A stretch of DNA of 47,076 nt from Nemertoderma westbladi (taxonomy: Eukaryota > Animalia > Xenacoelomorpha). A program made the position numbers and the translations under genes. Below are positions 3,685 to 31,608 of this stretch, in pieces (positions within the stretch are counted from its first letter, which is position 1; each line of letters opens with the position of its first letter). The notes under the pieces are model-generated. The model was not told the origin of the DNA and did not search any database. It worked only from the letters and a program-made list of their open reading frames with translations. Location: NCBI GenBank assembly GCA_032718475.1, contig JAUCBJ010008035.1, positions 1-47,076 on the forward strand, in the 5' to 3' direction.

Positions 3685-4447
3685 GACTACATGTGTACCA
3701 AGTTTGGTTAAATTTCATTAACATTTGGCTGAGTTATTAACGTTTAAAATTGGACACGACAGAACGACAGATCAACAGAACAACAGAGCCACAGACACAC
3801 CGATTGAGTTAGTGGTACCTGTATGCTAAGCTCGCTTACTTTCGTCGCTCGCCCCACAGACACACCGATTGAGTTAGTGGTACCTGTATGCTAAGCTCGC
3901 TTACTTTCGTCGCTCGCCCCACAGACACACCGATTGAGTTAGTGGTACCTGTATGCTAAGCTCGCTTACTTTCGTCGCTCGCCCCACAGACACACCGATT
4001 GAGTTAGTGGTACCTGTATGCTAAGCTCGCTTACTTTCGTCGCTCGCCCCACAGACACACCGATTGAGTTAGTGGTACCTGTATGCTAAGCTCGCTTACT
4101 TTCGTCGCTCGCCCCACAGACACACCGATTGAGTTAGTGGTACCTGTATGCTAAGCTCGCTTACTTTCGTCGCTCGCCCCACAGACACACCGATTGAGTT
4201 AGTGGTACCTGTATGCTAAGCTCGCTTACTTTCGTCGCTCGCCCCACAGACACACCGATTGAGTTAGCGGTACCTGTATGCTAAGCTCGCTTACTTTCGT
4301 CGCTCGCCCCACAGACACACCGATTGAGTTAGTGGTACCTGTATGCTAAGCTCGCTTACTTTCGTCGCTCGCCCCACAGACACACCGATTGAGTTAGCGC
4401 GGTACCTGTATGCTAAGCTCGCTTACTTTCGTCGCTCGCCCCACAAA
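3685..4447 (+). mobile_element. Probable Helentron-associated non-autonomous element (DINE-1/HINE-like) 3' part
   Basis: TGTGTACCAAGTTTGGTTAAA core-like motif (~3692), degenerate ACAG/GACAG microsatellite (3755-3800) and a terminal GCTCGCT..CGCTCGCC motif. This layout resembles invertebrate HINEs; recognised by eye only. Confidence 0.45.
3789..4445 (+). repeat. Tandem repeat, 65-bp unit x 10
   Basis: Unit CCACAGACACACCGATTGAGTTAGTGGTACCTGTATGCTAAGCTCGCTTACTTTCGTCGCTCGCC; ACAGACACAC recurs at 3791, 3856, 3921 ... 4376. Copy 8 has a T>C change; copy 10 has that change plus a 2-bp insertion. Confidence 0.97.
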
Positions 4448-6728
4448 TATAATATGTAATGTTCGGTATCGTCGGTTATAACCTCAACGTTTGAACTCTG
4501 TCGCCTCAACAATTCCGTTAGCACAGTTAGAATTATTAAAGCAAAATGTAAAATATACAGTATGATACCTTATAAAAAACCAGAAATGCCATGAACCAAT
4601 CTAACTGATTATAAAAAGCAGCTACACTGTAATATTGCAACATTTCAAAAAATTTAAAATAAAGTCCTTCGCTTTTGTCTATTCATGACCTTGAGGGGGG
4701 GGGGGGGGGGGGGGGGTATTTTTCATCGTACAAACTCATTCAGGGTTCATTTTAAAGTGAATTTTCAGGAGAACAAATGTTAGTATAAGTCAAAGCCAAT
4801 GCTATATGCAAGCAAAGAAGGGCTATCCATCATTTAAATTGTAAGCATTCGTAAATTCTGGAGTTATTATATTTCATATTTTTATTTATTTATTTTTTAT
4901 TTAAATGAGACTTAAATGAGCTCTGTGCGATAAAAAATGAAGGGTGTGAAATTTTTGTAAGACATGCTCATAGCGGAAAAATCATTCACGGGAAATTCGA
5001 TTTAGTGTAAGACAGAAATATCGCGCTTTGAATCTTAGCGAACAACTAAATTATAGTCACATAATGGATTCTGCAACGAGTAGAATGCCAATACTTGCTA
5101 TAATATGCACTAAAAAAAGGGGTTCAGAATTAAAAAATAACTTCTAAAATATCTTAAAGTTTCAATTTTTTGGCCCAAACTCGACTAACCCCCTCCCTTA
5201 ACCTGTAGTAGATGATTAACTTATAAGATTAGTTTATTATTAATTAATTTACTTTCATTTGTAAAAACCTATAAAATGTCCGTCGCTTTCTAATTCTTGA
5301 ATTTAAATCAATGTTAATTTGTTGTGAAGTGAAAAAAGAGTAGTCCAACTGCAATCCTCCATTCATAATTGAACATCTTTAATATTATGCGGGTCAATCT
5401 TGAATAAAACCCAAAAGTAATTCGCAATCAATCCGAACCACATATTTTGGATTCTATATAACCCTGTTAGTGACCGAAAAAAAGTCTATAAAAATTTAAA
5501 AAAATTCTACATAAATTTTCATAACGCAAGCCAAACAAAAGGGACAGTTAGGGGAGTGTAAGTAGCAAATTAGTGATGTTCCCGAAAAATAATAAATTAA
5601 TTATTGTACAATAGGCCTATGATGCAATTCAATAAGGAAATTAATAAATTTTGCACTGGCCTGTCAAACATAAATTGATATATCTAGGTAACTAGAAGTC
5701 GCATCCAATTTCACGATATATTACGGTAACTGAGATTCCACAGCACGGAAAATTCATAATTTACATTAATGTGCGACGATTTTTCACATAATACAATTTT
5801 GATTGGTCTATTGATTCTCGGTGTATCGTGTATGCCTAATATATTTATTTTATTTGGTTTATAAATCACAATAGTTTATAATTTTACAAATAAATTTTTT
5901 GGGTTTTTGAGGCCGACAAATACGATGAGCGAGGTTAAATGCCCCCGTTTAGTAGAGAAGTTTTGTAAATAAGCTCCTATATTTTACCAATAAAAGTTTT
6001 ACATGATGTACAGTGTCTATAAATCTATCTACCTATTATAGCAGGATAATGTAAAATAAGATAAAATTAGTTCGACTGAATCGCGAATTAGTTTTGGGTT
6101 ACCCCTTGTTTTTCTCTTGATTGATTAGACTATGTAACTATAAAACAGTTACAAACAATTCGTATTGTAGTGAGTGGAAAAGGAAAACCACATATTTATG
6201 GAAAATATTGTCCTGAAAAAAATAAATATAATGTGATTTATACTAGTTGCTAGAATTTAGAGCAAGTGTCTAAAGTATTAAAAAATATTATGTTATTAAA
6301 TGTTAACATTTTATATATATACATTTGTAAGACCCTACCTATGAAATAAATAATAATTATAAAAAAGAGTAACACTAAGTTACGTAAACCTGTTCCGAAA
6401 TAGACACAGGAAAAGTGTATAAAAACAATAATAAAATGCGAATCGCATGAGCTAAAAAATGAGTTTGATGTGAGATTAATTATTACATGTAAGTTCGGAC
6501 ATTGAGATACAATATGGCGTGCATGGGGGGGGGGGGGGGGGGGATAAATAAAGTTCATTCAAAGAAACTTTAAAATACAAGTTGGTGTACATTTTGTTAA
6601 ACAAACAGCGGTGAAAAGGGTGGAAGTTGGAGAATATCTCAAGGTGGAACCCACCGTATGGGTATTTGGCTAATTAACCTCAATTAACCTAAACCAATTA
6701 ATTAAATTAATTGGTTTGTCTTAGTAAA

Positions 6729-8312
6729 TTAATGTAAAGATTTTACAAATTCCGGGTTAAATCCATAACTTATGTCCCCAATAAACCCATCGACCCCCAT
6801 CTCTAGTTGCTTAGCAACATTCCCACCTTCATTGTTCTCCACCCCGTAACTGACTACGAACAACCCCCGTCGCTGCATCTCGCGTACGGCGCCACCTAGT
6901 GAGCGCTCTAGGAACTCGTCAGCGACCACCACCAGGCCCCGCAGTCCCTCCTGCTCGGCGAACGCTACACCGGCACCCAGACTCCCACAGCGGGGGTCCC
7001 TGAACGGTATCCAACGCCGACAAGCGGCGATCGTGAGTAACAAAACCGGGTAACGACTCTGTTTCAATCGCAAAGCTATCGCAACATCTGGATGGAATGT
7101 CGACAGAAATATGTTCCTATGGGGACCTGCGTTGTCAAGGATACAGTCTATCACGGAGTCCACGTAGCTGTCTAAGGCTGGGTAGGTTGGAGCTTCGTGG
7201 GTCCCATCAGATAAACCCATCGGGTATTTTATTTCTATGTTTAAACCAACTCGCCAAGGTAGCGAGGATTCTAGAACCGACTGCAACGAGGGGTATGCAG
7301 ATTCCTCGGTAGTCATGGGAGACCAAGAAGGGTGGCCACAGTGGTCACCCATGGATTGCAGCTGGTGGTGGTGGAGACTGGGAACTGGAATGGGAGTTAA
7401 AGTGGTGGAGTTTCCGTCGCATCCTGATAGGCAGGTATTTTCCACACACTGTGATTGACTACCGGCAGTACATTTTGTACGAATTCCCCCCTTAGCCGGT
7501 TGATTTATGTTCGAATTTCCCGCGTTTTCTCTCACGGAGAAATCGTGCCCCACCACAGGTACGCCATCTAGCGTTACCAGCACGTCCAACTCAATGTAAT
7601 CCACCCCACTAGAGGTCGCCGCGAAGAAACTCGCCATTGTGTTTTCTCGCATGTGCCCAGGTTGCCTAGCGACGCAGCTGTCGACGACGCCGTAACCACG
7701 GTGACCAATGGCGAGCGGCCGTCGAGCCAGTAACGCCGCCCAGGAGGATGTGTGTCGGTTGGCATGGATACCGGTACACTGGGGTGGCGGAACAGTTATA
7801 CGTAGTAGGTTGAGTGTAATAGAGCCTACGGGTTGGGTTGTCAAGGAAACAGCCAATGGTAATTCAGTTTGATTTATCGTTTCCGGGAAAACAGCCAATG
7901 GGAGTTCGACATATTCGAGACAACTTAATCCAAAATAACTGCTGTCTACAATAACAACCTCCCCATAGCGAATTTCTGAGTCCACAGATATAATTTCTAA
8001 ACGACATCCACGTGACTCACGTTCAGTAGTTCGGTAAGATACATTTACAATATCATCGGTATTTACAGGAATAAGAAAGGGACATTCGGTGTACCGCAAA
8101 GTACCGCCGGATGGCGTTGTAACAGTTACCACTAGACCCTGATCTATCGATCTATTTTGTCCGATTATAGAAACACCCAGCTGAAATTCTTGGAGGGTTG
8201 AGTTTGTATTGAGTAACACTGGAGAGCGACTCTTAGTGTTGAATAAATTAATTCGATACTCTGTGATCCTGTTCTGAGAGTGGCCGTTGAGTGGCGCTGC
8301 GAGAGAATCCAT
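6729..8312 (-). CDS. GPCPD1: Glycerophosphocholine phosphodiesterase GPCPD1/GDE5-like (GDPD domain), 527 aa, uninterrupted ORF
   Basis: GDPD motifs IGHRG, ENTMASF, DYIELDV, DGVPVVGHD, LNIEIKYP, plus STFHPD..LRLKQSRYPVLLLT typical of the GDE5/GPCPD1 group. No CBM20 domain is visible in the ORF. Confidence 0.85.
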   Translation of the reverse strand: MDSLAAPLNGHSQNRITEYRINLFNTKSRSPVLLNTNSTLQEFQLGVSIIGQNRSIDQGLVVTVTTPSGGTLRYTECPFLIPVNTDDIVNVSYRTTERESRGCRLEIISVDSEIRYGEVVIVDSSYFGLSCLEYVELPLAVFPETINQTELPLAVSLTTQPVGSITLNLLRITVPPPQCTGIHANRHTSSWAALLARRPLAIGHRGYGVVDSCVARQPGHMRENTMASFFAATSSGVDYIELDVLVTLDGVPVVGHDFSVRENAGNSNINQPAKGGIRTKCTAGSQSQCVENTCLSGCDGNSTTLTPIPVPSLHHHQLQSMGDHCGHPSWSPMTTEESAYPSLQSVLESSLPWRVGLNIEIKYPMGLSDGTHEAPTYPALDSYVDSVIDCILDNAGPHRNIFLSTFHPDVAIALRLKQSRYPVLLLTIAACRRWIPFRDPRCGSLGAGVAFAEQEGLRGLVVVADEFLERSLGGAVREMQRRGLFVVSYGVENNEGGNVAKQLEMGVDGFIGDISYGFNPEFVKSLH

Positions 8313-10890
8313 GTTGTTCCGATTGGGAATATTCTTACAGCAGCATTATTTGTGTTGAACATATAAATAATTCATTATATAAATAACTACTATTGCACAA
8401 AAATTATAATAAAAACTGTTAAAGTTTTAAAAACACACGATATAGATGTGATTAATAATGCGATTTAAAATTTATTATTTAATGTAAAAAATAATGTAGA
8501 ACACTAATTTCACAATGTTTGAGATATTTTAGTTACCAAGGTTAATAATGAATAGAGAACATAGCCAAATTTTATGAAAATTAATAATTCATTTTTATAT
8601 CCAATGTATTTGAATGTAACAATCCTTCATTTTTACGTGAGTAACAAATATGTTTCGCTAATTTAGAGACGCATGTGGGTAACAAACATACCAAACACTG
8701 AGCTGATCATACCAAAGCTCTACATGGCACTAAAGGCCTAGGCTTGCTACACATGAACAATAAACTCATTTCCTGCCACACTCTATACATAATTGGAGGT
8801 GTCTATTTAGTCCCCCCATGCTTGACTCTTGAACAGAGCCGCCTCCGCTTTGCAGGACATTGCTTTCTTCTGTATGAGAATCAGCCCAAGCACGAACTTC
8901 CCCTTTAGTGCCCTCATGGAGAGAATAAGCATGGCGGACGGCCCATAATTTTCTTGAGACGCATTTTAAAGGACATTTGCCTTGAAAATGAAAGTAAATT
9001 CTTTCGATAGTAATGGGGGATAGCAAGTTGTGGCGCAGCAATTCGATTTAGTAGAATGGAATTCGTCAACTATAGTTTCGTAGGGTAAAATAATGGGCGT
9101 TCTATAAAACGGACTGACTGACACAGTGACACCCCACTTTACGGAGGAGTGTCAATGGCGTGTACTTAGTAGTGTGGGGGGTATCCAAAGGGGTAATTCA
9201 TTATAAATTATATACTGCATGTTACACAGGTGCCAACTGAACCAATGAGAATAAATTACCATACTAACTAACGACACACACACTGCCGCCCACTGGTCAA
9301 TGGTTGGAGGTTGCAGAGACAGCTCATTAGTGGTTGAATTAGTTACGTCAGAGCTCCTAAGGGCAATACCCCGTTCTATCAATAACTGGTAGTAGGCGGC
9401 CAAAACTAATTAATTAACTAATTAATTAATTAACAGACATGTTTTAAAATATCGTCAAATAAAGTCAATGGCTTGGTAAAAATGCTATTTAAACAAATTA
9501 CATTACGGAAAATCTTAACGCAAAGAATGCCAATTATCTCAGAATGATAATTAATAAATTAATGTTATTGTGGCGAACAGGGCGTTGAGAGATGAAGAGA
9601 GAGTCCTTCGATGCAGAAAACGCCAGTTGCCGATGGGAGTGCAACTAAATGACGGCTCCCAAAGTAGAGGAAGTTAAGATTTCTTAAGGTGGAATGTGAA
9701 AAAGTTGAAAAAGGTTGTTTTGTAATGACTGAATTAACTGAATTAATTTTAATTTTGAAAAAGAAATAAGAGGAAACAATTAATTCAGTAAACTTTGAAG
9801 CAGGGGTTTGCACAAGGCACCAGGTTGTCGACTTGGAAGTGAGGAAAAAGTGGAGAGAAGCTCCTTAAATACCTTCCCAGGAAGCGTCCTGATTGGGTAG
9901 CCAAGGAGACTGCTGAGTGACCAGTTACACTCCCCGCTAGGGGGTGTTACCAAGAGGGTGCTGTAGAGACACCAGATTCCGTTTCGATCCCAAAAGGTGG
10001 CCACAGATAAATTTGTTAGAGAAAACTATTGAATTTTAGTTAGAGTTCCGTCAACAACCTGGAGATTATTTACAGCTAAAGCTGCTAATAAAAAATCACT
10101 CATTTCAGTATTTTTAAACTTTGCGAGCTAATATTTTGGACTGAAATTCATCTCGGTAAGCAATTTCGATATTAAATAAATTTGTGTGCGTTAAATGTGT
10201 AATGCAAATAAATGAAGTTGACCTATCTTTTTATTTAGTTTTAATTTAATAAGACAAATAATTTAAATCAAATTATAATTACAAAAAACAAGCCATAATG
10301 AGCACTAACTGATCTGTTACAAATGCAAAAATTTATACTATTATAGATATAAAAACAAACAATAAACAAAAAATAGTACAAAACAAAACAAAGGTAAACA
10401 AAACATCCAATAAAAAATAATAAAAAAAAATATAAAAACAACCACAATTTTTTTGTTACATATATTATATATATACTGTACTATCTAATGATTTATATTT
10501 TCCTCATTTGATCGAAAAAATTATTTAAAATCTGTTTTTTAATTTTAATTCCGACCCAAAAAGGTCCATCTTTAGTCCCATTGACTAAATTTAATTCTAC
10601 AATTTAAACACCAATGAGTTAGTATTACCGTAACCAGGATATTGACATACGTCTGTGTAATGTAATATAATACTTTAACGTGTTGTTTGTTACACTCGAG
10701 CGAACGTAGTGATTGAATGCATATAACCACACGAGGTTCATTACAATTACACAGCAAAAACAAACTCTGAAACCATCTGTTTTTATATGTAAATCGCAAC
10801 ATTACATGAAAACTGAATAAAAATAAACTTTTATGCCTTTGGACCTACAGTACGACCAAAAAAAACAAACATAAAAAGATACAAAAAAAG

Positions 10891-14230: not shown

Positions 14231-14290
14231 GTCTCTGACCTGATGAGCATAAGCTCAAAGGATTGTATGCTTGAGCATGTGGACGACTTC
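14231..14290 (+). mobile_element. RTE LINE fragment, left half (interrupted by the LTR element)
   Basis: Encodes ..DCMLEHVDDF, which continues in frame as CYLGSWIRKS after 31444; homologous to 1590-1650. Confidence 0.8.
14286..14290. repeat. Target-site duplication ACTTC (partner at 31440-31444)
   Basis: Identical 5-mers immediately flank TGTTCGCG... and ...GCTTTTACA. Confidence 0.93.
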
Positions 14291-15539
14291 TGTTCGCGCT
14301 TTCAGACCTTTGGCAGTTTAACCCGCCAAATTAGGATGTCTTTTAGATAATAAATCACTTTTAGCCTCTGACAAGTATTTGATTCACTACACTAGTCGAA
14401 ACCAATCTGTGCGCGATCATTCACCCGCTGGATATACCCGGGAGATTGGGTTCGACGGCTTAATCTTATTGCTATGTAAGCCTAATGTATTATTCGACTG
14501 ACAGTATTATATAATCTCTGACAATATTATTCACCTTCGGGGAATATTAACAGTTCCTTTAGGACGTGGCGCTCTATCTATAAAAACAGAGTTATGACTT
14601 AAACTACTCACAACGATATGGCTTAGTTACAATTCACATATATGGCGCATTCTTTAGGAAATGCTTCGTTATCAGTCTCGCTCATACACAACGCTGCACA
14701 ATGCTGCACACTAATCTGCCGATCTTCACTGATTTTAGTCACATATAAAAGGAACACAGACCGACTCATGTAGGGTCTATCAAATAACATTAGATTCACT
14801 TCAAACCACTTTAACATAAGTCACAATCGTTATATGTAACCTTTCTCTCTTACCTTCGGTATATCAAGAATATTGGGTTTTCGGGGTTATTTATCGTTAT
14901 TCCAAATATAATAATTCATCAACCATATTATGAAGAACCGACAGTAAATAGCAGTATAACAATATAAAAGTATGCACAGGTATATTAGATTAGGTATGTT
15001 GCGTTGATTGAGTATGGGCCAGTTAACCAGTATTTTGGTTGGTTTGTTTGCAGGTTTGAGTTTGTTAACGGATATATGTCCTTATAATTAAGCCTACTAG
15101 TGTTAGGCTAAAACAGAAAAGCACAAAATATTCCCAAGCCGCTCTCTCCTGGCTCAGGACAGAATGTAAACACTGCCCATAATGCATTGCGTGATTTCTA
15201 GGAAATTTCTGTACAAGAGCCATAAAAATGCTCTGATTGGCTGACTGAACTGAGAGATGCCGTAGAACAAAGAAAATCGACACGTATGAATATCAGCTGT
15301 TAACCGTCGTCATAGTAACTACTGTTCAAGAGTAGCTATCACCTTTTGCGTCACGGAATTGCCATAGAATCATCAACTATGCCTTTCACAGTACACATAC
15401 GGAGGAAATAGCTCTTAGATCCTCTAAAAAACACCGATACAGCAATAATACGGTCTCTTACACCTATTAAATCAACTACAGAGTATTTTAATGTGAAAAA
15501 TAATAAAAATAACGGGGCAATTCAGCAAAGGCTTTTACA
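14291..15539 (-). repeat. 3' LTR (1,249 bp, TG...CA)
   Basis: Direct repeat of 30191-31439. Differences seen only at 15071 (G vs A at 30971) and 15258 (T vs C at 31158). Confidence 0.97.
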
Positions 15540-15547
15540 CCGCTCCC
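15540..15547 (-). other. Polypurine tract (plus-strand primer)
   Basis: Element sense strand reads GGGAGCGG immediately before TGTAAAAGC, the start of the 3' LTR. Confidence 0.7.
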
Positions 15548-15862
15548 AGAAAATGGGATTTTCAGTCTATAAAATATAAAAATCACAGTTTCTAAAACCT
15601 AAAGATACTCTAAACAGTTAGTCTTTCTTACGCGGACGGCGTTTACGCAGTTTCTTGAGGCTAGCAAGAGTCCTTTTCTCTTTGGGGCGAGCCACTTTAC
15701 GAGGAGGGCTGTAGCTCCTAGGCGAAGGGTGCAATACAATTGCATCAGAAGGTGTAGGGTTACGATCGGTATACCCGCCGGTCGAAGTACCTGGTTGATT
15801 AATATCAACCTCAGTGGAGCGAGGTCTAATGGCCTTTAGAGCGCGTCTCAGGACAGCAGCTC

Positions 15863-18141
15863 CTACGGGTCCTTGACGGGTCGTCTGGACACTAGTGGTG
15901 GACCGTGAGTGGTGAGGAACTTTCTCGGTTTAATGGTTCTCTCCAGCTCGCGTTCTCGGGTTCGATATTCATATGGTCGCCGAGATACTTCCTGTAGTTC
16001 AGGATGCGAGTTCACAAAGATGTCGCCATACTCAGGGTCCTGACGGATAAAATTGATCAGGTGATATGTGGTTATATCATTAGGGTTAACGTTTCTAAGG
16101 TATTTTCTGACAAACTTGGTGGAAATACACTCACCAACACGCTTCATTAACTCGTAACTTGGTACGCGTGTTTTCTGTTCAATCGACGCGAATAGATAAG
16201 GATGGAACGCGTAAACTCCCTCGTAAGCTCTTCCAGGGTAATAGCGATGTCGGGATTCGCAATGTAAATCCGCGTTCGCTTCCCAAGCTCGGATGTATCG
16301 CAGGGTGATCATCTCGTGTACGCTCTCTAAATCGCGATTAAAGGGACAATTGTAACTTTCATGTCCTTTAAGTTGACAGTAGTGACATTGAGTCATAAAT
16401 TGTGGGCAGACGGCAAAAATATGAGAGTTATTAAGTCTGCAATAAGCACAATATATTTCCATCATCGGTTGTTCGAGGAAATAGGAGCAAGGTACGCTCG
16501 AGTCTAGAGGGGTGAAGTGGTCTCTCGATGCGCATAATCGACAACGTTTTCGAGAAACGTAGTTGGCGTGTCGATAATCGTACGCTGTGAGACGTTGTGG
16601 ACCTTGATACCACTCTATGACATAATCATTGTCACTGCTCCGGGAAGCTGTAGGCTGAATCGCTTCTGATTCCAAGCATACTGGTTCATCCTCCAGCTGT
16701 ATAGACGAAGTGGGTGCGTCTGTCTCAGTAAGTGGATCCACTGTCTGTATTTCCACGACGGAATAACCTGTAGGTATTCGGGGTCTTTGTATAACGGATG
16801 AATGTAAGTTCTGTATACAAACGTCTTGAAAAACGGCAAATCCAGCGCTACTCAGTTTCTCCGCAGCTGAGTCTCTCAGACTGAGTTTGGTCAGCGCGCG
16901 GTCCTTGAACTGACTATCGACGTTACGGAACGGAGTCAGGAAGCGCCGGAAACATTCGAAACGTATGAACTTATTGTGTTCGTCTAACTTGGCGAGTTTA
17001 GTTCCAAGTATTAATGGATGAGCGCGTATGGTACGACTGCACACATCGGCTAGCCAACCGGCAAGTGCTGCGTTTTCAAAGATCGTGTATATAGCTAAGG
17101 AAGGGCGAAGTGGAACACTCATAAAGCTATATACGGCACCAGGCGCAGTTAATGGTCCATCAAAATATAAACGAGAGTAATGATCTCCATATACTTGCTG
17201 GTAATTGATAGGATTTCCAACTTTGAAATTCCATCCATATTCTTGAAAGGCAAGATGTCCGATGGATGTCCGTTGTACTTTAGTAATGTCGCTGGGTGTA
17301 TTGGCATACATAGTGCGAAAGAAACCTCGGCCTTCGGCCCAAGGAGCAATCAGCTGAGTATCAACGAAAGGGTATGGAATGTTTTCCATATTCCGGAAGT
17401 CGTTTTGGAGATCTCCATAAACAGCTGAGCCGATTTTTAGGATTCTTTCGTTAAACAACATTTCGAGCACAGGTTGGGGTAACATTGATCCATCGATACC
17501 CATGGCCGGTTTGCGCTCGGTGTCGGTGACGTAACGCTGCGCGAGCTCGAATTGTCCATGTCGAAGTTTCTTTTGTGTCTCCGTAAGGGTTTCAAAAGAA
17601 TAATCAATCACGTCGGAACACGCTCGAGTGAATACGTGGGTAGAACCAGCGAGTCCTCGTATATGTATCATTCACGTAGTTCCTAGTTCTCCCACCGGAA
17701 CGCTACCTTCGTTGTCATAAGTAACAACGCCATACATCTCGATAACGTTAAGAGTCTCATTCCATTCTTTAGTGGCGTTTTCGAGAGTCATTCCCACTGG
17801 ATGCCACAAAGTAGCGCATTCGCTAGCATTGGGTAAATCTCTATACTTTAAGCATTGTGTAGTATAGGTTTCCACATCTCCATATCGTTTAAATCGATAG
17901 GGTGGCCGGTAGTTAAGAAGTCCATATACGTACCATTACGATGCGTATAGCGAGCTGTGAACTTTCTATAGTCCAATTCACGCGTAAGTTGCTCCTGGGA
18001 CATTGGCGGTTCGATATAACGACCATCGTCCTCCGTAGTAGTTGGATCAGCGTCGCCGCGTATCAAGCTATCGACAAACGCTTGTAAAGGTAGAGTATAT
18101 CTCTCCCTGATACCAAGATCATCTTCTATTAATTCAGTCAT
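15863..18141 (-). CDS. Accessory ORF of the LTR element: DEDDy-like 3'-5' exonuclease plus three Cys/His zinc-knuckle-like motifs (~760 codons when joined; split by a -1 frameshift near 17890 and an in-frame TGA at 17672-17674)
   Basis: Three consecutive ORFs (18141-17848, 17875-17672, 17671-15863) join up. ExoI GVVTYDNEG (D 17714-16, E 17708-10); LPQPVLEMLFNERILKIGSAVYGD (ExoII D 17411-13); FVDTQLIA; SIGHLA; PLRPSLAIYTIFE (ExoIII, YxxxE variant); then CRLCASRDH..C, CAYCRLNNSHIFAVC, CHYCQLKGHESYNC. Confidence 0.75.
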
Positions 18142-18227
18142 ATCTGCTATACGAGTTCACCAATATTATAATGAGTTTATATATTTATTAGGCGAGCGGG
18201 CGTCGCTGCCTATTTCTCCCTTGCCCC

Positions 18228-18335
18228 CGGACAGTGTGAGATTCTCAGCGCCGATGTACCGCTGTCGCTGTACTTTCGCCAACGACGTAGCCGTACAACG
18301 ACAACGATAACCGGCACAAGTCACTCCACTGTCCG
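18228..18335 (-). other. Long imperfect RNA hairpin upstream of the accessory ORF
   Basis: Nested complementary blocks: CGGACAGTG(18228-36)/CACTGTCCG(18327-35), GCGCCG/CGGCAC, CGCTGTCGCTGTAC(18260-73)/GTACAACGACAACG(18293-306). The C.A mismatches on the + strand are G.U pairs on the - strand. Confidence 0.7.
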
Positions 18336-18633
18336 TCCCAAAGGCTTAGATGTACTTCAGGTTTTCCTTGGAGAGTTAGGTTACTTTCACGATTGCGACT
18401 AGCTACTGTAAACACACTTTAGCAGTAACATTCACCTATAAACTCACAAATACCACACAACTGGTCACAACTACGCACATTCGGGCGATTTGTCCGTTAG
18501 TCAATGCCTTCCAGAATGTCACTGTATTATTATGTATCCTTGGATACTAGCAGTGCGCTATTTATTCCCTATGCTATTCAATGGGGCATGCTTTCTATTG
18601 TTCTTTTAACTCACTTCTAATTCTAGCGTGGTT

Positions 18634-18647
18634 GTTGCCATGGTGAC
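18634..18647. promoter_or_regulatory. RFX X-box-like motif inside the LTR element
   Basis: GTTGCCATGGTGAC closely fits the palindromic RFX consensus GTTNCCATGGNAAC; it lies ~490 bp upstream of the accessory ORF. Confidence 0.4.
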
Positions 18648-18954
18648 ATTATGGAAAGCTAGCGGTAGAATTAGGGTAATTCTCATGCATACAGATCTGG
18701 GATGCTATTTAATAGTAATTCTTTAATGGTCAATATCCCCTTTATACATGATTTTATGAATTTTATCGGCTATTGACTATACATTGGAGATTCTCGCACA
18801 CAAATACACTTAATAGAGTGAATCTCCGCTCCAATGATCTATTAATTAATGGAATTTTGGGAATGTTATAAATTGTGTAAAAATGGCAATTTATTAAATT
18901 CATTAAAAGGCATGAATTTAAATTTATTCCCTGAAATTTTATTATTTGATAATT

Positions 18955-19278
18955 AAATGGACATATTTTGATTCTAGAACATGTCTGGGACACAAGATCC
19001 TTAATTCTATGAAAATTGTCCTTTTAAGAATATCGGTAAATGCTACGATATCTTAATTGACTAGAATTGTTGAAGGATCTGAATTTTACAGATTTTGATT
19101 TATTAGATTTGCAAATATTAAATAATTAATATTTGAGATGGGCACCGATTTATTCCAGAACTTGTCTGGGGACGTTAACCACTGATTCTAGAATTTGTCT
19201 TTCAAGTATATCGGTGGGTGCCGCGATATCTTAATCAACTAGAATTACAGATGGTCAAAGGGTTTAACAGATTTACTT
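18955..19278. repeat. Degenerate ~180-bp direct duplication between integrase and the accessory ORF
   Basis: ATTCTAGAACATGTCTGGG..TATCGGT..CGATATCTTAATTGACTAGAATT (18971-19068) recurs as ATTCCAGAACTTGTCTGGG..TATCGGT..CGATATCTTAATCAACTAGAATT (19152-19246). Confidence 0.75.
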
Positions 19279-19790
19279 TGCGTTATACGCTACTGTTAAA
19301 GGGACATCACGCTACTATATGTATTATTTAATATACGGTATGAGAGCAATATCGCACGAAGCAATGTCAGTGTGAAGAGGCAAGTCGTTTCCAAGGTCTA
19401 CCCAGAGCTTGGTTTAGCCGAGACACGAGGATCTGAACTTTGCATTCCTAATACTCTGCCTACCAATAATACTTGAATATAGTAGTGGCTTTATTGTACT
19501 TTAATAAGTACGAAGATTTCATCTTACTGTAGTCACGTATTGATTGTGTAATACGGGCAGTAAGGAAAGAGAAAAAGAATTATTTCTCGCCGTCGCACTA
19601 AATATAATATAAGTAATTACGTACGCAATAAACACTAATATATTGCACTATTCTACTAAATAATCGCTAAATAATATTCTACTAAATTAAATAAAACGAT
19701 TATAATAAAATTACATAGTAATACATACATAAATATAAAAATAATAAAATAATATAAAATAATAGAGTCACACGCCCACTCCGAACGATA

Positions 19791-22700
19791 TTAAGTTGGG
19801 GAGTCCCTAGATGTGGGTTGGATTAGGGAAGTGGTCGTGGGAAGAGTTTCTTGCCTTCCATAGTTTCCGGAGAGCTCTCTGTCTCTTTCCAGTAAACATA
19901 AACGACCCACTGGGCGGTTGAGCTGTTGAGTCTCAAAGACTATCCCTGGTTTCTTAAAGTTACGCCGCATGACGACGAGTTCTACTGATCGCACCAAACC
20001 ATCGCTCGAGATATGAGTCTCGATGATACGTCCTGTTTGCCATCGCTTACGTGGGAGATCGGGGTCCACAATAAGCACCATGTCTCCAGCGCTGACGTTT
20101 TCTTGCTGCGCAAACCACTTAGTTCGAAGTTGTAGAGTGGGCAGGTAATGTTTCTCGAAATGGTCAGCGAAACGACGGGATAGCAACTGCATAAGTTGCC
20201 AGGTTCGACGACAGTACTCGTCTCCGTCTGTGATCTCCGATCGTGGGAGCATGGCTACGGGTTTCTTCAGTAGAAAGTGCGCGGGTGTTAGCGCTTCCAG
20301 GGAATCAGGACTTGAAGAGACTGGCATAAGCGGTCTTTCGTTGAGATAGGCGGCGATTTCCTCCATTAACGTCCGCAATAGTTCGTCGGTGAGATAAGCG
20401 CGACAAGGTACAATAAAGTGGAACGCAGTCTTCACGCTCCTAATCAATCTCTCCCAACTTCCTCCCCACCAAGGGGCGTCGGCGGCGTTGAAGGTCCAGC
20501 TAGACGCTGTTATCTTTAGCTGATCGTCCACCTGTCTTTTGTTCCAGTCCTTTACGTAAGCTTGAATTTCGTTGTTGGCGCCAATGAAGTTCGTTCCCTT
20601 ATCCGATCTCATCGTGTTACTGGTTCCGAAACGAGCGATCTGTCGTCGTAAACTCAACACGAAGCTGTTGGTGGATAGATCGTTTACCATATCGAGATGG
20701 ATAGCTCTACAAGTCATACAAACGAAGATGACACACCATCTCTTGACTATAGTCCGGGCACGATATACTTCAATAGGGCCAAATAAATCCACACCGGTAT
20801 TAGTAAAGGGTGGTTCATAGAAGCTTACTCTTTCCCTAGGTAATTCTGCCTCTCACTGTGTCAAAGGCCTACTGAATGCTTTCCTACAGGGTATGCAGTT
20901 CCTAAGGACTTGGTTCAGAGCCCTACGGGGTTTATAAAAATAGAAGCGAGTTCGAATTTCGCTCAGAACTCGTTCTCTTCCAGCATGATACAGTTTGCTA
21001 TGAACATCTACAATCATCTTGATTTGTATGTCAAGATTTCTAATGAGTATGGGAAATTTAGTGTCAAAGGATAATGGGGCGTTGGTAAGCCTGCCTCCAA
21101 CACGTATTAACCCATCTATCATGGTACTAGAGAAGCGATCCCTTAAGCGCATCTGCGGATTTCTTAACAACAGGAAATACTTATCGGGATCTTCATAGCA
21201 TTGTAGGAGTCTCAGCATCTGTTTGTTGGTTTCATCATGCTCCTGGTAACTGATCTTCTCCTTTAGAAACCTGTCGGATATCTTGTATTTGGGAAGATCT
21301 TTAACAACATGGACTCGTGCAGACGTTGATGGAGCATCATCACTATTGGTCTTTGTCCCGGAGTAACGATGATGAAAACATCGTTTTAAATAGGTGACGG
21401 CTTTACAGAGCCGATTCCAGGAGCTGTAGTGACGTATCGCTCTCTGCAAGAGGGGTGAGAGTCCTTGCGCGATATCTGGTATTCCAGATTTCCAATCCTT
21501 GTCACGGATTTCCAAGACTTCTTTAGTCGTGGCGGTGGGTTTCTGATCCAAAGCATCCTCTCTGGAAGTAAATAATACAGATAGATCAACCGCAGGTTTA
21601 AACAACTTCGATTTACTCGCTCGAGTTTTGGGTTTAACTTTCTCCGCTCCCTTGGCCTGTCTGATCTCTGCTGTTGTGAGATGGGGAGGCCATTCTTCTT
21701 CTTCTCGGTAGAGAAAGTCGGGTCCACCTAACCATTCGGGAGTATTTACCAATTCCTTTGGAGTCGCTCCTCGGGAAGCGATGTCTGCTGGATTAATCGT
21801 TCCGGGGCAATGTCTCCATTGGTCCATCGTCGTGCGACTAAGTATGATGGCTACTCTGTTGGTAACGAAGACGCTGAACTGACAGACTTCATTGGTTATA
21901 TACTCTAACACGAGTAAAGCGTCGGTCCAATAGACAGTTTTCTCTAATGGATAGTTAATCTGTTCTGTTACATTCCGGCCGATGGCTCTAGCGTATAGAG
22001 CCGCTTTTAACTCCGCTCGAGGAACTTTCAACTTGTTGTTGATTAATGCCTTAGAAGTAACCAAGGCGACTTTGATTCCATCCGGAGTTTCCACTCTTAG
22101 ATAGGCTACTATACCTATTCCCATATCGCTGGCGTCTCCAAACACATGGAGTTGATAGGAATACGTAGGGAGAACATGACCAAAGTATGAACGGGAAATT
22201 ATAAAATGCTCGATAGCCGGCAGAGAATCTTCCCATTTCATCCACTTCTTTAATAATTCTCCCTTAAGTGGATCGTCCCATGAGTGGTTTTCAAGCCACA
22301 TTTGTTGTACCAAACTACGAGCAATCAATATAACTGGACTAATAAATCCCAATGGATCGAAATAAGTGCTCAGTATACTTAAGCAAATCCGTTTGGTTCG
22401 AACTGGATTATCTCGCTGTTTTAGCTGGAAAAACAGGATATCTCGCTCTGTGTCCCATTTCAAGCCGAGTGTCTTGGTTTCTGGCAGATCATCTTTGATC
22501 AGATCTAGATCTTTCGCCCCTCGATCTTCCGCAGGGATCGACTCCAGAAACTCACGGGAGTTGCTGGTGAATTTCGTTAATCGAAACCCACCTCTTTTTA
22601 AGCACTCTACCGTTCCTTTAGCGACCTCAATGGCTTCCTCAACTGATGGAAGGGACTTCAGATTGTCGTCCATGTATATGTCTCGCTTGATGTTGTCGAT

Positions 22701-25700
22701 CACTTCCTTAGAGAAGGCCTCTCGGTTGTCCTCTGCAGTGGTACGCACTACCGAACAGGCGTTGGAAGGGCTTGAGATTATCCCAAAGGCCTGGATGGTC
22801 ATCCAGTACTCCACCGGTTTCTGGTTGAGGTCTCCTTCGGGCCACCACAGAAATCGTAGACTATCTCGATCCCTATCTAACACTTTGACTTGTAAGAACA
22901 TGCCTTCTATATCGGAGGCGAAAGCAATCGAATATTGTCTCAATCTTAAAAGAATTCCCAACAAAGATTGAAGTAAGTTGGGTCCGGGTAACAATTCAGA
23001 GTTAAGGGATTGACCCATGTAAAGAGCGGAGCCATCAAACACTACTCTCACTTCATGTGGTTTACCGGGTTTAGGAACGTAATGGTGAGTTAAGTAATAC
23101 GTTCTTTCAGTCACAGGTGTTTCTTCCGGTACTCTCTCCGCGTATCCCTTACTAATAAATTTCTCCAGCTGTGTTTGATACATTTCTTTAGCTGAAGAAT
23201 TAGCCGTAAGGCGTCGATGGAGTTGCGCGATTCTTTTTTCCGCCAAGGGCCTGTTATTGATGAACTTCGGTTCTCTCTTGCGGAAAGGTAGACCGACTTC
23301 ATACCTACCTTGATCTTTGAGGAAACGTGTAGTTGTCTCTTGGATCTGCTTGGCCCTTTCCTCTTCCACCGATAAGGCTTTATCGTAGGAATTGGGCTCT
23401 ACTGCCTCTTGCGTAAAGAATCGTACGGCATGTTCATCTCGAGTCTTGGCATTACAACGCTCAATGACGGCATTTAACTCGTCGTTATAAGCTTCTCGTT
23501 CAGATGGATAAAGAAGTTGACATAAGTTCACTTGGTTTTGCCAAGCCTCGTTTTCCTTAAGGAGATCGATGGTATTCTCCTCATCAAAAAGCTGGTGAAC
23601 GTCGTCGTTATCTGAGGAGTATGGGGTTCCCTCAGTTAAATCGTCTCCCTCACTAGTATCATCTTCCCATTCACTCACCTGGCAGACGCGCTCTTGCGGT
23701 AGTCTTTCTCTGAGTGTTCTACGGGAAGGGCCAGTAAAGTACCAACCTACTCTAGTTCTTACCGCATAGGTCTGTAGTGGCTGCGGTTGAGCAGGCCGTT
23801 TCTCTAATGTCTCCAGCGCCTCATGCGCGTTTTGGCCGATGAGTATTTGCACTCCAGGATAATCAGTCTGGAATCGAGGTATCTTAAGATGTTGGATGCT
23901 CTCATCCTCGTCCCAATTATAAAGGTCTGCTTGAGTAGTAGCGAAGTTCTTTATAGCCACCATTTTCACTGACCTTATGCTATGTTCTCCTAGTTCGTCC
24001 TGTGGGGTGGACAACGCGCCTACATAATAATCAGCTGTTACTGTAGATTTCCAAACTTGCATAATGCCTGACATGTTTAGCTTAGTTCGGAACTTGGGTT
24101 GTCCAGCAAATATGTCTTCGGCTAGCTCTTTGTCGATGAATGTTCCTGTACTACCGGAGTCAAGGAGGGCGTTCACTACATAACTCCTTTTAGGTCCGTG
24201 AACCCTTACTTGCACCACAGGAAACTCTCGGATCCCTACATTGGAAGATGGCTCTTTCCAAGATGGTTGTCGATCAGAAGTAGTTAGAGTGAGGTCGCTG
24301 TCTGTATCTTTTTCATATGTGAGTGCTCGATACACTGCGGTATTTATCATGTAACAGGATTCGTTTTCGTCGGAGAACTCGTCCGTATAGAATCCTTCCA
24401 TCTCAGATTGATCAGTGTCGTTCACATCACTGAATTGGACATGCAGTTCGGAATCACTTACCTGATTCGGACTATTTCGATCGAATTCAGCGTGCAACAA
24501 GATATGATGTTTCGCACCACACTTTGCACACCTTATGTCTGAGTAACAGGTTCGCCGTTGGTGTCCTTGTCTGAGGCAATTATAACATAACCGCTTATCC
24601 CACATGACTTCTCGTCTCTCCGTTAATGATTTCTTCAGGAATTCATCACACATATTCAAACGGTGGGTCCCGTCACATAGCGCACATTTCGGTTTGATGT
24701 TACTTACCTTATTTTGGGTGACATTGTGCACTCTCGTTCTTTCTTCGGGCTTTCTCACCTGAATTATCTTGGGAGACGTAGGAGGAGTTTTTCTTACCTG
24801 TTCTCTCTTGTCATTGGATCGAGACTTAAATTTACTTCCCTGTTCGTTAGGTGTTTTATTGACATAATAAGATCTTTCAGTGTCTTTCCCGCTATCCTCC
24901 TCTTGGGAAGCTTGGCTTTCGCCGTCGTCGGTATAACACACTGGTGTTACCTTTCTTCTGGAGACGGGTTTCTCACTTACCTTGTTTTCCGATGTCTTCT
25001 CTCTGGACTGCTTTATGAGCTGTAATTTCACTTCGCCATCCAAGAATGTCATGAGATCAGTCATGGTAGGGTCTCGTTGTTGTTGTTCCATCATGTATAA
25101 CACCTTTTTGTCCCAGCGTGTACCTACTCCACCCTTCGGTAAAGTAGAAGCCACTGCTCTAATAACCATAGCACTCTGATACTCATGAGACTTACCTAGC
25201 CAATCTAATTGTCTGCAGATCTCCTGAATTTCATCGGAAAACTCTATAATCCCGTTGCTAATAAACTTTCGGGGCGCTACCAACTTTGCATACAAATACC
25301 CAGCTATGTTATTCCTATTACCATACCTGATGTTTAGTGTATCCCAAACTTGTCTTAATCCGTCTGGATGTCCAATAAACTTTAACGCCATTAACTTGGG
25401 AGATCCTTCCAAGCACTCTATGAGGAATCTAAGTTTCTCTCCATTAGATAGTACAGAGTTCTGTATGTTATCTTTGTAATATTCATTAAAAGGTAACCAT
25501 TTCATCTCATCTCCATTGAACTTGACGATCTCTCCCACCTTCACCGCTTGCCGGGCTTCGGTTCTAGCCATTTGACGCGTAAAACTTTCTTGGGCCATCG
25601 TGTTATTTAATATCGAGTTATCGGTATATAAATTTCTCGGATTATGATCAGGTCTATAGGGAATGTCATTATCAACAGGTCTATAATTACCCTTAATAGG

Positions 25701-27932
25701 GTTCACTATAGGAGTTTCTACTTCGCTAGCAGTATATATGCGTGTAGGCTCCACACCTTGCGCATGAGATACTTCAGACCTAACAGGTTGACACATTGTT
25801 ACCAAGGGTGGTGGTATACCCCTTTGTGCATTTACTAATTTATCGCGTTCTAGCGCGATACTTTGCTGCACTTCTTGCAACTCTAGCCTACTTTCCCTTA
25901 CTGTGCCCTTGAATTGCTGAACAGTCTCCTGCATCTGCCCGAGCAGGAGATCCATCCCCCGCCGTCTCTCGTCCACCCATTCGATCGCCGAAGCGGGAGT
26001 CGCCAACGTTGTAGCGGGCGGACGAGGGACAACGGGCGACAAATCATGAATATTTCGCTCGGGGTCCAGGACCTGAACTGTCTCCTGGGCAGTTCTACTG
26101 GGCACAGGTAGCTTAGTGCTATGCAGAGGGAATTTAGGGGTAGCTTCAGGGAGCACAGGTGTGTCTATCACCGAAGGGGTGATTTCAAGAACAGGCCTAA
26201 TTATTTCAGGCTCATCTACTATAGTAGGGAGTCTTTCTATTTTAATTATTTGGTCTGTGGGCTCTGTACTACCTAAGTTGGTATTATTTAGTTGCCTTCT
26301 AACAGCTGGAGGCAAATCAGGCAATTTCTGACGGTGGAATGTTCTTTTACGTCTGCTTAGACGAGATCTATTTCCTTTGCCTTCAGTATCGGTGGTATCG
26401 CCTTCTTCAGATGATGTATATCCCTGTCTTTTGGGAGTAGATCGATTCATCATCTGCATATTACTAGCTGTTAACTGTTTATTTATGCAGTCTTGATTCT
26501 CCTGAATGTTTTCCAATTCTAATTGGGTGATTTCTTCAGTCGCTCTCCGTTCGGCTTCGGCCACTGCCTCTGCGGCCTTTCTTTCAGCCTCGGCCGCCTT
26601 TCTTTCTGCCGCTGCCGCTGCCGCTGCCGCTGCCGCTGCCGCTGCCGCTGCCGCTGCCGCTGCCGCTTTTCTTTCAGCTTCGGCCGCTTTTGCCTCTGCC
26701 GCTGCTTCTGCCGCTGCCGCTTTTCTTTCTGCTTCTGCAGCTACCACTGCTGCTTTCTTTCTGTCTTCTATACGTTTTTTCTTTACTTGTTCTTCTTGGA
26801 CTCGTGTCAGGCGGAGTTGTTCATCAAATTTAGCCTGATTCGCAGCCCTCATTTCCACATCGATGGCATCCAACACACGCTGAGTTCCTTCGTTATTAGG
26901 GCTAAGTCCATCTAACCTTCTCCTCAACTCGTCATCACCTAAAAAACGTTGATAGTCTGACAGATAGATGTCAATGGCATCCCTCTTATGCGGTTTCTCT
27001 GCCGTCGCTTCACTTTCCACTTGGGAAAAAGTAGCGTCTGTTGATTCTCCATGGGTGGAGCGCTCCTCCAGCTGAGCTTTCCACTGAGCTGTTCCTTGAA
27101 CCTGGCGACTCACCCGTTGAAACCAAGTCTTTACGGCAACTTGCAACGACGTGTCTTGTCTTCTTTTAGAAGCCTCTTCAAAGGCTGATAATATTAGCCT
27201 GATTCGCAGAATTCTTTCTCTAACTTGATAAAGCAGTTGTCCCTGCTCTTGAGGTCCTTGAGGTTGTTGTAACAGTTGTTTTTCTACTCGCTCCATAGAG
27301 CTGAAGAATCCCTGTGCGTATCCGGCTGCGGACCTCTTCCACACAGCTGGATCGATGGTTTCCTTGGCTACTCCCATCCGGTGTATGTCTTCCCAGGCAG
27401 CTTCTGATAAATCAAACGGGAGTCCGGGTCCGGGGAAGTTCCATTGCGACTCGACCATGGACTTCAGTTCTTCCCTTGTGTATCCAGCATAACTATCTTT
27501 AGTTGAGCGCTGACTTCTCGCCCAATCGATCTGGTGTTCTTCCACCGCAATCAATAACCTAGTGAGTACGGCTGCAGGAAGGATGAGAAGGGGATCCGAA
27601 TAAACCGCATCCGTCATCCTTGCTCCGCGCTCGGGTGTCAGTTCTACAGTATCTTCACTACTGGAGCTGTCGGGCCGCTGAGAAATAATTTCTTGGCTCA
27701 CGGGTTGTTGCTGTTCCGCTGCTTCTTGGTCCCGCTTGACCTGAGCTCGAGTGCCTATGATAGACCTACGATGTTGGACCAGCCTAGGTTCTGTTATTAC
27801 TACAGGAGGGATGACCTTCCTCACAGTGGGAGGTGAACTGAACTTACGACTAGACGGTTCTACGCCTCTATCTGAGTCGCAGATAGTTACATCTAATAAA
27901 CTGTCTGACAGGTTCTGCTTAGTATCAGACAT
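19791..27932 (-). CDS. BEL/Pao gag-pol polyprotein (~2,710 codons) with one in-frame TGA at 20853-20855
   Basis: Gag core (FNGDEMKWLPF..EKLRFLIECLEG..WDTLNIRYGN); zinc knuckles CALCDGTHRLNMC, CYNCLRQGHQRRTC, CAKCGAKHHILLH; protease LLDSGS (~24160); RT VRVVFDGSA, DIEGMFLQV, YMDD (22665-76); RNase H FGDAS, PRAEL, WTDA, NPADIASRG; integrase H..HAG..CIPC, then TQ*EAELPRERV..PFTNTGVDLFGP, SDKGTNF, PWWGGSWERLI, LTPAHFL in the same frame. Confidence 0.95.
26607..26666 (-). repeat. (GCGGCA)n microsatellite encoding a ~20-residue poly-alanine tract in gag
   Basis: (GCCGCT)n on the + strand, flanked by AEAERKA repeats. Confidence 0.9.
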
Positions 27933-28066
27933 GTTTATGTGTACAGTTGAATGTCTACTGCTGTATTACAGTCTGAGCAAGTCTAGTAACTCAGTATTAA
28001 CTGCTAGCCTAGTAATTAATTACCGATACTGCTACTCAGTGTAGTGTGATATATATAATATATTAG

Positions 28067-28315
28067 AATACCGGTATGCTTATAGTATATATAACTATAT
28101 AAGTATTATTACAGACTAGGTTTATCACAGAATACCGGTATAATTTTAGCACAAAGATATATAAATATATAATAGGCCTATCGGGAATACCGGTATACAG
28201 CTTACAGTTTGAAGTATATATAATTCTGGACTAGAATTAATTACAAGTACCGGTATAATTTCAGCCTAAATTTATAGAAATAAAGATAATAGGCCTATCG
28301 TAAATACCGGTATAT
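28067..28315. repeat. Five regularly spaced TACCGGTAT palindromic motifs in the element 5' UTR
   Basis: ACCGGT cores at 28070, 28134, 28189, 28249, 28306 (spacing 55-64 bp); alternate units share TAATAGGCCTATCG. Confidence 0.8.
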
Positions 28316-29254
28316 CAATTATTTTAAATAATTGAATTTCTGAATTTTAGGGTTACTTGGTTACTTTACTTACTTTATTACCGTTATTTGAGCAGTAATC
28401 CAACTGATATTGAGACCTAATGGTTGTATGGTAGGCCTACTATTTATAAATCGTTAGATTTGATTTATAATATATATATACCCGTTTTAATGGGTTTTGT
28501 CAATGTTTGAAATAAATGTTATTATTTCTGGGGAGTAATCACTACACAAAGCGGTGCGCTTTCAGTGAAGTGTTACTTATAGGACACTAAAACAAATAAT
28601 GCTAATTTACCTAAGTTACTTAATACTACAAATTACGTACAATTCGGGTGAGATTACAATCTCTAAATAAACACAAAAATTTACAAAAAACACAAAATAC
28701 GAATTTTCAGGGTAATTTTACAAGAAGTCTACAAACCAGCCTAACAAAGGGTTAGAAATCTGGTTATTACAACGGACAGGGTACTGCGGTATTTGAAAAT
28801 AATACGTAGTAGTAAATACACTGCGTTGTCCAGATAGGAAAATACCACCGCCTGACGACCTATAGCCGTATCGCTATAGGTACTACGTTATGTATCACGG
28901 AGTGTTCCTACCTAGAAGTTAATAGAGCTAATCGAACGTGCCTATCAACCACTTTACAACACAAATATAATGCCTACACTAATTACTTTCGGAAAGCACT
29001 GTACACTAAACCCTAAATTAGGTACGAGTACTTGTACAACATATAATCAGTAGTTAAATATACTTGAACAGCTAAAAGAACCACGGCATCTGCTGGAGTG
29101 ACCGGTGCACAAAATCACCAGTCTTTACCTACGCCAAGCAGCCCGTGTAGTACCGGGGTTAATTTAACTATAGCGGTATGTATAACAAACACAATTATTG
29201 TAGGAACAAACTTGGGGAATGAATGTTGCGAATAATCGCATAAACTCTGAATAA

Positions 29255-29825
29255 TAAATATTACGCTACGCGTACAAACCACTCAAACAAAATGCAGACC
29301 AAATACTGACAGACTACTATCAAGCCTAAATAAACTACAGGACATGCAGACTCCGAAATGATTAGGTAGTATGCGTTCTAACCCAGTAGCACGACTTATT
29401 CTTTAGATGGGGGTTTACCTTACAGCTTTGGCTGCCCCTACTTCCTAACCGTTCTTTATCGGACAGAGGCTCTACACACACTGCAATCCGTTCAGACCTA
29501 ATAACAGCCAGACAACTATCCAGCCTACAAATTATCTAAATAAATATTATACGCTACCTGTACAGACTACACAAACAAAGTACAGACTAAACGATGGCAG
29601 ACTACTCTCAAGCCTAAATAAACTACAGGACATGCAGACTCCGAAATGATTAGGTAGTATGCGTTCTAACCCAGTAGTACGACTTATTCTTTAGTTGGGG
29701 GTTTACCTTACAGCTTTGGCTGCCCCTACTTCCTAACCGTTCTTTATCGGACAGGTGATCTACACACACTGCAATCCGTTCGGACTTAACAGCAATCAGA
29801 CAACAGCCCAGCCTACAAATTGTCT
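29255..29825. repeat. Tandem duplication of ~288 bp in the element 5' UTR
   Basis: GACATGCAGACTCCGAAATGATTAGG... at 29341 and 29629; near-identical core with more diverged ends. Confidence 0.92.
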
Positions 29826-30013
29826 GTACAATATGATCAGGCTTACACGCCTTCTGTTCAATACTGGCCTACAAACAAATAAAACTGACAGAAATAAGTA
29901 AGCTCCAAAAGAAACAAGGGGTGTACAGTCCCTAATCTCTTAAACAGCCTACCGGTATACAATAATCAAATCGAATAATACTAATGTACTTATACGGGAA
30001 GTACCAGTTAGGA

Positions 30014-30123
30014 CAGTTGGGCCTACGGACCTACAGAAGTACCGGTTCTGGCAGTTGGACCTACGGACCTACGGCAGTACCGGTTCTGGCAGTTGGGCCT
30101 ACTGACCTACAGATGTACCGTTC
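30014..30123. repeat. 38-bp tandem repeat x ~3 near the 5' LTR
   Basis: CAGTTGGRCCTACGGACCTACRGMAGTACCGGTTCTGG at 30014, 30052 and 30090 (last copy partial). Confidence 0.9.
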
Positions 30124-30190
30124 AGGTTTACCGGTTGACCGGTACTTTCAACTTTATTGCTTACTGCAATAAAGAAGCAATATCCGTTAT

Positions 30191-31439: not shown

Positions 31440-31608
31440 ACTTCTGTTACCTGGGATCATGGATCCGGAAGTCAGGTGAGGACCTTCGAATACTTAAGGG
31501 AAAGGCATGGGCAGCCTTGAAAATAGGCTTTCCAGGATTTGGAAGGCACAGAGAATTAATCGGAAACTTAATGTCCGATTATTTAGAGCAGCAGTAGTTC
31601 CAGTTCTT
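31440..31608 (+). mobile_element. RTE LINE fragment, right half
   Basis: CYLGSWIRKSGEDLRILKGKAWAAL-NRLSRIWKAQRINRKLNVRLFRAAVVPVL; homologous to 1650-1810. Confidence 0.85.

Follow-up and report, generated by a model that had tools for sequence, protein, structure and literature searches.

Juno and Vesta are placed in the Ty3/Gypsy group. These LTR elements of bdelloid rotifers, together with the Athena/Terminon elements, are described as carrying a third open reading frame (ORF3) for a DEDDy exonuclease with a DEED motif (PMC5408684); a sequence-only reading of the present locus had noted DEDDy ORF3s in rotifer Ty3/Gypsy-type elements. Terminons likewise bear a DEDDy ORF3, and neither activity of these ORF3s nor selection on them is reported (PMC5408684, PMC6431247). 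The rotifer ORF3s are separate, spliced units, and Rodriguez et al. reported for them neither a departure from neutrality nor a benefit to copy number (PMC5408684). In Laccaria and Ectocarpus, the transposases of Dada DNA elements are also reported to contain a DEDDy domain (PMC3706591). Among cellular enzymes, TbRND, the RNase D of Trypanosoma brucei, trims guide RNAs, and its CCHC domain raises both RNA binding and cleavage (PMC7797062).

BEL/Pao elements usually measure 4.2-10 kb, with LTRs of 0.2-1.2 kb, and rarely contain env (PMC3118150). The literature searched contained no BEL/Pao element with a DEDDy exonuclease, in keeping with the sequence-only reading; subscription journals, Repbase and supplements may contain one. 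That reading had also named no case with a zinc-knuckle fusion, which stands for BEL/Pao but not more widely, since an exonuclease joined to CCHC knuckles is known in TbRND (PMC7797062). Here we describe such a candidate gene in a 47,076-nucleotide stretch of Nemertoderma westbladi DNA, which we refer to as the window.

Results

A complete LTR element lies on the minus strand of the window at 14291-31439 (17,149 bp). Its 5' LTR (30191-31439) and 3' LTR (14291-15539) are each 1249 bp long, have TG...CA ends and differ by 2 mismatches in 1249 bases, and the element is flanked by a 5-bp target-site duplication (14286-14290, with the second copy at 31440-31444). Adjoining the 3' LTR is a short purine-rich tract (15540-15548, minus strand), likely the polypurine tract (PPT). 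The gag-pol gene occupies a single minus-strand frame at 19791-27932, which has one in-frame stop (20853-20855) directly upstream of the integrase core. A motif check of this frame gave the order Gag knuckles, protease, reverse transcriptase (RT) with YMDD, RNase H and integrase, with the three Cys/His motifs of Gag at residues 1094, 1127 and 1146. Three such motifs in Gag are a feature of BEL/Pao. Pfam models found Peptidase_A17 (PF05380, E 1.4e-35), PF03564, PF17921 and PF18701, the other domains named being DUF1759, an integrase zinc domain and DUF5641.

Judged by its Pao-specific Pfam domains and motif order, the element is a member of BEL/Pao, as had been claimed, and the LTRs and the 5-bp duplication agree. 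The triple-knuckle Gag, the PR-RT-RH-IN order, Peptidase_A17, DUF1759 and DUF5641 are shared with BEL/Pao (Belpaoviridae), as are the TG...CA LTRs and the 5-bp duplication (PMC3118150). In contrast to the usual members, the window element is 17.1 kb long, has a third gene that is predicted to be enzymatic and not env, and has no tRNA-type primer site. The 2.2-kb leader (27966-30190) holds a 288-base tandem pair and three 38-base repeats, and Gag includes an Ala/Glu/Lys-rich repeat with an Ala run (26539-26772).

The window stretch was present in 6 of the 7 listed sequencing runs, which come from 4 studies under two organism labels. The junction of the empty site (14290/31440) was present in runs X1, X4 and X5, and the insertion is thus polymorphic. 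The BEL/Pao family with the accessory gene is young, high-copy and polymorphic. At 46353-47076 lies the end of a further LTR, which belongs to this family with 94% identity; no primer-site sequence follows it, and it is a 3' or solo LTR. Elsewhere the window holds a CFAP43 homolog (35754-40799, plus strand) in a single uninterrupted frame of 1681 residues, which is unusual for an animal gene, and an uninterrupted glycerophosphodiester phosphodiesterase frame (6729-8345, minus strand; PF03009). Both neighbours are consistent with an animal host. It also contains a tandem array of a 65-base unit (3659-4527) and, at 43145-43861 between two repeat copies, a MITE-like insertion in which 65-base inverted repeats surround 587 bases.

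BEL/Pao elements usually, though not by definition, have a tRNA-type primer site that starts with TGG. No TGG was found directly inside the 5' LTR, where the primer-site position (30171-30190, minus strand) is followed by stable hairpins (z -3.55), and searches with Rfam and for tRNA genes gave no match. Ten bases at the primer position are exactly complementary to the 3' LTR at 15075-15066. In a test made post hoc, a complement of this length arose in 0.35-1.3% of LTRs after Markov shuffling and for 8 of 729 other 20-mers. The 5' LTR has a change within the complementary site, where a G-U pair is still possible. The duplex energy of this pairing was unremarkable (7%): a set of 300 shuffles contained 21 that did as well, and a set of 114 matched 22-mers contained 8. 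The complement and the hairpins hint at self-priming, a hint that is weak by duplex energy.

Between the end of integrase (19791) and the 3' LTR (15539) lies an accessory coding region in sense to the element (minus strand), which runs in three pieces from an ATG at 18141 to a stop at 15865-15863. This agrees with the sequence-only reading, which had described a sense region of about 2.3 kb between integrase and the PPT that the ORF track splits in three. No plus-strand frame of at least 100 codons overlaps it. It is separated from gag-pol by a non-coding spacer of 1649 bases (18142-19790), which has good coverage in sibling copies and contains a GC-rich stretch and, some 40 bases upstream of ATG 18141, a TATA-like run in which the sibling indels fall.

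The 5' piece (17880-18141) matched no family. The main frame, translated with its stop written as X (P0006, 676 residues; hereafter the window protein), contains a putative DEDDy-like 3'-5' exonuclease domain at 17039-17731, assigned from motifs, from alignment with a homolog (P0007) and from RNase D models. All of the exonuclease motifs that had been quoted are present, and in the same order: YDNE at 17719 (ExoI D 17716, E 17710), MIHIR downstream of the stop, LPQPV at 17482, YGDL at 17419 (ExoII D 17413), VDTQ at 17365 (DTQ 17362), SIGHL at 17266 and YTIFE at 17089 (ExoIII Y 17089, E 17077). The Glu noticed in place of the last Asp is there, and P0007 also has YxxxE. As further described, the domain is followed by an acidic low-complexity linker (16619-16741; 9 D/E versus 2 K/R over residues 401-440) and by three Cys/His knuckles (16346-16543) with the patterns CX2CX4HX9C (16543-16487), CX2CX5HX4C (16450-16406) and the canonical CX2CX4HX4C (16387-16346). 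We rejected the idea that these are a copy of the element's own Gag knuckles, for which the comparison gave only E 1.2. The C-terminal region with the stop codon (15863-16345) has no assigned fold and no significant likeness to P0007. The highest 19-residue hydropathy values were 1.19 and 0.46, and hence no transmembrane segment occurs in the pieces present, as expected if the gene is not env. All of these features lie on the minus strand.

We compared the window with sibling copies in contigs from four runs (X1, X3, X4 and X5), and this comparison changed the picture of a simple join of three pieces into a protein of about 759 residues. A premature stop interrupts the main frame at 17672-17674 (minus strand). 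At position 17674, another letter was read in 98,731 of a total depth of 98,848 for X1 and throughout the depth of X3, X4 and X5, so the stop is private to the window copy. The change of frame lies at 17879-17890 (minus strand), where about 12 bases overlap. Sibling contigs from the exonuclease side depart from the window at 17889-17890 in X1, X3 and X5 and earlier in X4, and those from the upstream side depart at 17879-17883 in all four runs. None of the 32 pieces listed, of about 6300, bridges 17879-17890, and no indel row falls within 17620-18141, all 7 being upstream of the ATG. Loose ends on both sides, with neither an indel nor a listed bridging piece, indicate an internal deletion junction at which a segment is missing from the window copy, and the join of about 759 residues is therefore not a natural protein. 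Past the junction, one X4 contig runs on for 255 letters or more, and another for 200, and neither returns to the window, so that the deleted segment is probably hundreds of bases long. The upstream piece and the exonuclease may be one gene or two.

A programmed -1 frameshift was also considered for this position, where a UUUAAAC heptamer lies in phase at 17893. The downstream structure was not significant (z 0.19 to -1.56) and the siblings have a different sequence at the junction, which rules this out and makes the heptamer a coincidence. Together with the stop in pol (20853-20855), the premature stop and the deletion junction bring to three the lesions in a copy with near-identical LTRs. 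One X3 contig omits 15539-20353, a weak observation with a side of 25 bases. Summed contig depth was several-fold higher at 17893-18144 than over the exonuclease, a figure that cannot rank the parts of the gene.

The sequence-only reading had asked whether the frame is absent or decaying neutrally in sibling elements. We examined codon positions, rather than dN/dS, at the listed variant columns, which are the best-supported 40 of 1450 and 40 of 151 in two comparisons. Among the 41 listed columns within the exonuclease frame, 31 were third, 9 first and 1 second positions, a third-position bias with p 3.7e-8 against the expected one third. By part, 27 of 34 listed columns of the N-terminal and exonuclease portion were third positions, as were 3 of 6 from the knuckles to the C-terminus. 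The upstream piece showed the same tendency (8 of 10 listed columns, p 0.0034) and is likewise under selection. Since the siblings vary chiefly at third positions, the accessory gene is under selection and has been kept. The window differs from more than 99% of the X1 depth at four columns, three of which are first positions, as expected for a decaying copy. These results show that the accessory gene is maintained by selection in the siblings and broken in the window copy.

In Pfam, NCBIfam, PHROGs and PDB, the window protein reached no curated cutoff, and the Pfam check that had been suggested (PF01612) gave no match. Only two of 18,950 NCBIfam models matched, both of them RNase D, at residues 140-185 (E 0.009 and 0.064); the better match falls far below its curated cutoff and covers the ExoII-DTQ segment. 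Structure prediction by AlphaFold2 with one and two sequences gave pLDDT values of 32.0 and 27.9 and unusable models. Foldseek on the first of these returned nothing at E 0.001, from a model itself too poor to count, and the DnaQ fold, for which AlphaFold and Foldseek had been suggested as a check, was not obtained.

A phmmer search of 1.84 billion proteins with the window protein gave a single match, P0007 (648 residues, E 8.4e-8), which forms a cluster by itself and is encoded on a contig of 9,449 bp. P0007 has the same layout of exonuclease-like region, charged linker and three knuckles. It is 30% identical to the window protein and retains the Tyr as well as each of the four acidic positions. 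When the proteins were compared by segment, none of 2000 shuffles reached the score of the ExoII-DTQ segment, the stretch up to ExoIII or the knuckles, whereas the score was reached by 622 of 2000 for the ExoI side, 92 of 2000 for ExoIII alone and 1923 of 2000 for the C-terminus. P0007 matched PF01612 weakly (E 0.2) at the same segment, and by sequence it found only nucleocapsid-type knuckles in PDB. The ESM Atlas evidence likewise comes from this homolog: with its residues 35-255, 25 of 30 hits (scores 0.94-0.95) lay in the PF01612 set, in which PF01612 is found on 34% of members. The whole of P0007 gave as its best cluster a mainly euglenozoan one with PF01612 and zf-CCHC (0.86), in the layout of TbRND, which is a lead only. 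Word-index protein searches found no relative beyond P0007 and no rotifer ORF3 sequence among their matches. No relative was found in phages, and none of 375 pattern matches in viral contigs was confirmed, nor any of 182 in a metagenome search with P0007.

When metagenomes were scanned with the two-sequence alignment, 148 pattern matches yielded 7 confirmed loci. The PF01612 cutoff was passed by 4 of the 5 loci scanned, and the one that was searched matches WRN exonuclease structures. In L002, L003, L004 and L007, a WRN-type exonuclease, split by an intron, lies between DD and DxxH-like motifs, an arrangement reported for Dada transposases of fungi, and the metagenome loci look like Dada DNA transposases. 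In a profile comparison with them, the aligned part spanned 37 columns surrounding the pattern (probability 94%), with no signal in the columns before and after it, and the likeness of the window to these WRN-type loci is limited to 28-37 columns, the search pattern included. An ExoI profile built from 6 of the loci gave no score with the window protein.

Thus, the ExoII Asp and the downstream DTQ segment are present and score against known families. The ExoI D-x-E is present in register with P0007; the alignment there was not significant. Because the signal is confined to ExoII-DTQ, the assignment of ExoI and ExoIII rests on order, spacing and conservation in one homolog, and the claim of a DEDDy domain stands for the ExoII-DTQ segment more firmly than for the other two motifs. 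ExoIII reads YxxxE, not YxxxD, in both proteins. As both have D-x-E, D and P-L-x6-Y-x3-E (P-to-Y spacing 8), the Glu is, by this comparison of two sequences, a trait of the family and not damage. It may lower or abolish activity; we lean slightly towards a domain that is still active with Glu as its last metal ligand.

The domain may instead be no DEDDy exonuclease at all, with an ExoII-like segment that arose by chance in a knuckle protein of another fold. Such a protein would account for the lack of a curated match and of a usable model, and for a signal limited to about 45 residues. Independent libraries, however, agree on both the family and the segment that matches it, and the motif order and spacing are common to both proteins, which makes this alternative distinctly unlikely. 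A DEDDy exonuclease fold is the likely identity of the domain.

Discussion

The accessory gene of this BEL/Pao element resembles ORF3 of Juno and Vesta in encoding an apparently RNase D-like DEDDy protein, with no membrane segment, in the env position downstream of pol (PMC5408684). Unlike the rotifer ORF3s, from which it is set apart by description only, it has the motif D-E-D-E rather than DEED, and a C-terminal triple knuckle where that source gives a Cys-His-Cys motif in only two ORF3s; the source does not describe the Juno and Vesta clades as BEL/Pao (PMC5408684). With TbRND it shares the arrangement of 3'-5' exonuclease domain (here a putative one), linker and array of CCHC knuckles. TbRND is a cellular enzyme with four knuckles and a 28-residue linker (PMC7797062), whereas the window protein is encoded by a retrotransposon; its knuckles number three, its linker spans about 160 residues, and it has additional regions at both termini. 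Any homology would be at the level of the fold family. Dada elements, as described (PMC3706591), carry a WRN-type exonuclease on a transposon, and the motif order is the same in the loci to which the ExoII pattern of the window led. The exonuclease of Dada lies inside a DDE transposase and retains all four DEDD residues (PMC3706591), whereas the match of the window is to ExoII only.

The explanation that we favour, tentatively and with rather less than even confidence, is that the product is a knuckle-assisted exoribonuclease that targets small silencing RNAs. The accessory gene would encode a 3'-5' exoribonuclease of the RNase D/WRN type, in which the zinc knuckles would grip single-stranded RNA and pass its 3' end into the active site. 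By analogy with TbRND, of the proteins with this plan the one studied best, we infer that the knuckles supply RNA binding. The exonuclease would then shorten or destroy small silencing RNAs of the host; that these are piRNA or siRNA is a guess. The protein would be made separately and act in the cell rather than in the particle. Action in the cell is favoured because the gene lies 1.65 kb downstream of pol, outside the gag-pol polyprotein, and because the rotifer ORF3s are separate units.

A second, rather improbable explanation is that the exonuclease trims the element's own RNA, back to the duplex of LTR and primer site, and thereby makes or cleans the reverse-transcription primer. The missing TGG after the 5' LTR and the rarity of the 10-base complement among shuffled LTRs and other 20-mers would suit such a role, as would knuckles that could bring the protein into particles. 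The complementarity was, however, evaluated after the match had been noticed, and the duplex energy is ordinary. Known self-priming proceeds by RNase H cleavage, which also counts against primer making by an exonuclease. Self-priming as such is known in Tf1/Sushi and in some plant lineages (PMC6317226).

It is about equally doubtful that the protein is a weak or dead nuclease which, like Egalitarian, EXD1 and Maelstrom, serves as an RNA-binding adaptor to localise, protect or package element RNA. Glu replaces the ExoIII Asp in both known sequences, the three knuckles would give binding, and inactive DEDD derivatives that retain RNA binding are described (PMC5408684). Against this, four acidic positions and the Tyr have been retained at 30% identity, which would not be expected of a long-dead site. 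Least supported of the three functions proposed earlier, and very unlikely, is that the protein proofreads or trims the ends of cDNA while an unusually long RNA is reverse-transcribed. In its favour would be the 17.1-kb element compared with the usual 4.2-10 kb (PMC3118150), the precedent for size in nidovirus ExoN and the proposed DNA-end processing by the exonuclease of Dada (PMC3706591), which the nearest loci resemble. Against it stand a gene not fused to RT, extra length that is mostly non-coding and the diversity of sibling copies.

The boldest combination of these ideas is a BEL/Pao lineage that does without tRNA priming and has its own D-E-D-E knuckle exoribonuclease, which would trim element RNA or destroy silencing RNAs. 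This would be an undescribed family of transposon nucleases and the first self-priming BEL/Pao, and we regard it as a long shot.

If the favoured reading of the accessory gene as a knuckle-assisted exoribonuclease is true, BEL/Pao joins the Gypsy, Penelope-like and Dada elements as a carrier of exonuclease cargo, with the addition of a sign of purifying selection that is absent from the rotifer study. Both the replacement of Asp by Glu in the active site and the lack of a tRNA primer site merit specialist attention. Because the family is young, high-copy and polymorphic, it would offer a testable case of whether nucleases encoded by animal retrotransposons act against piRNA or siRNA or serve the element's own replication.
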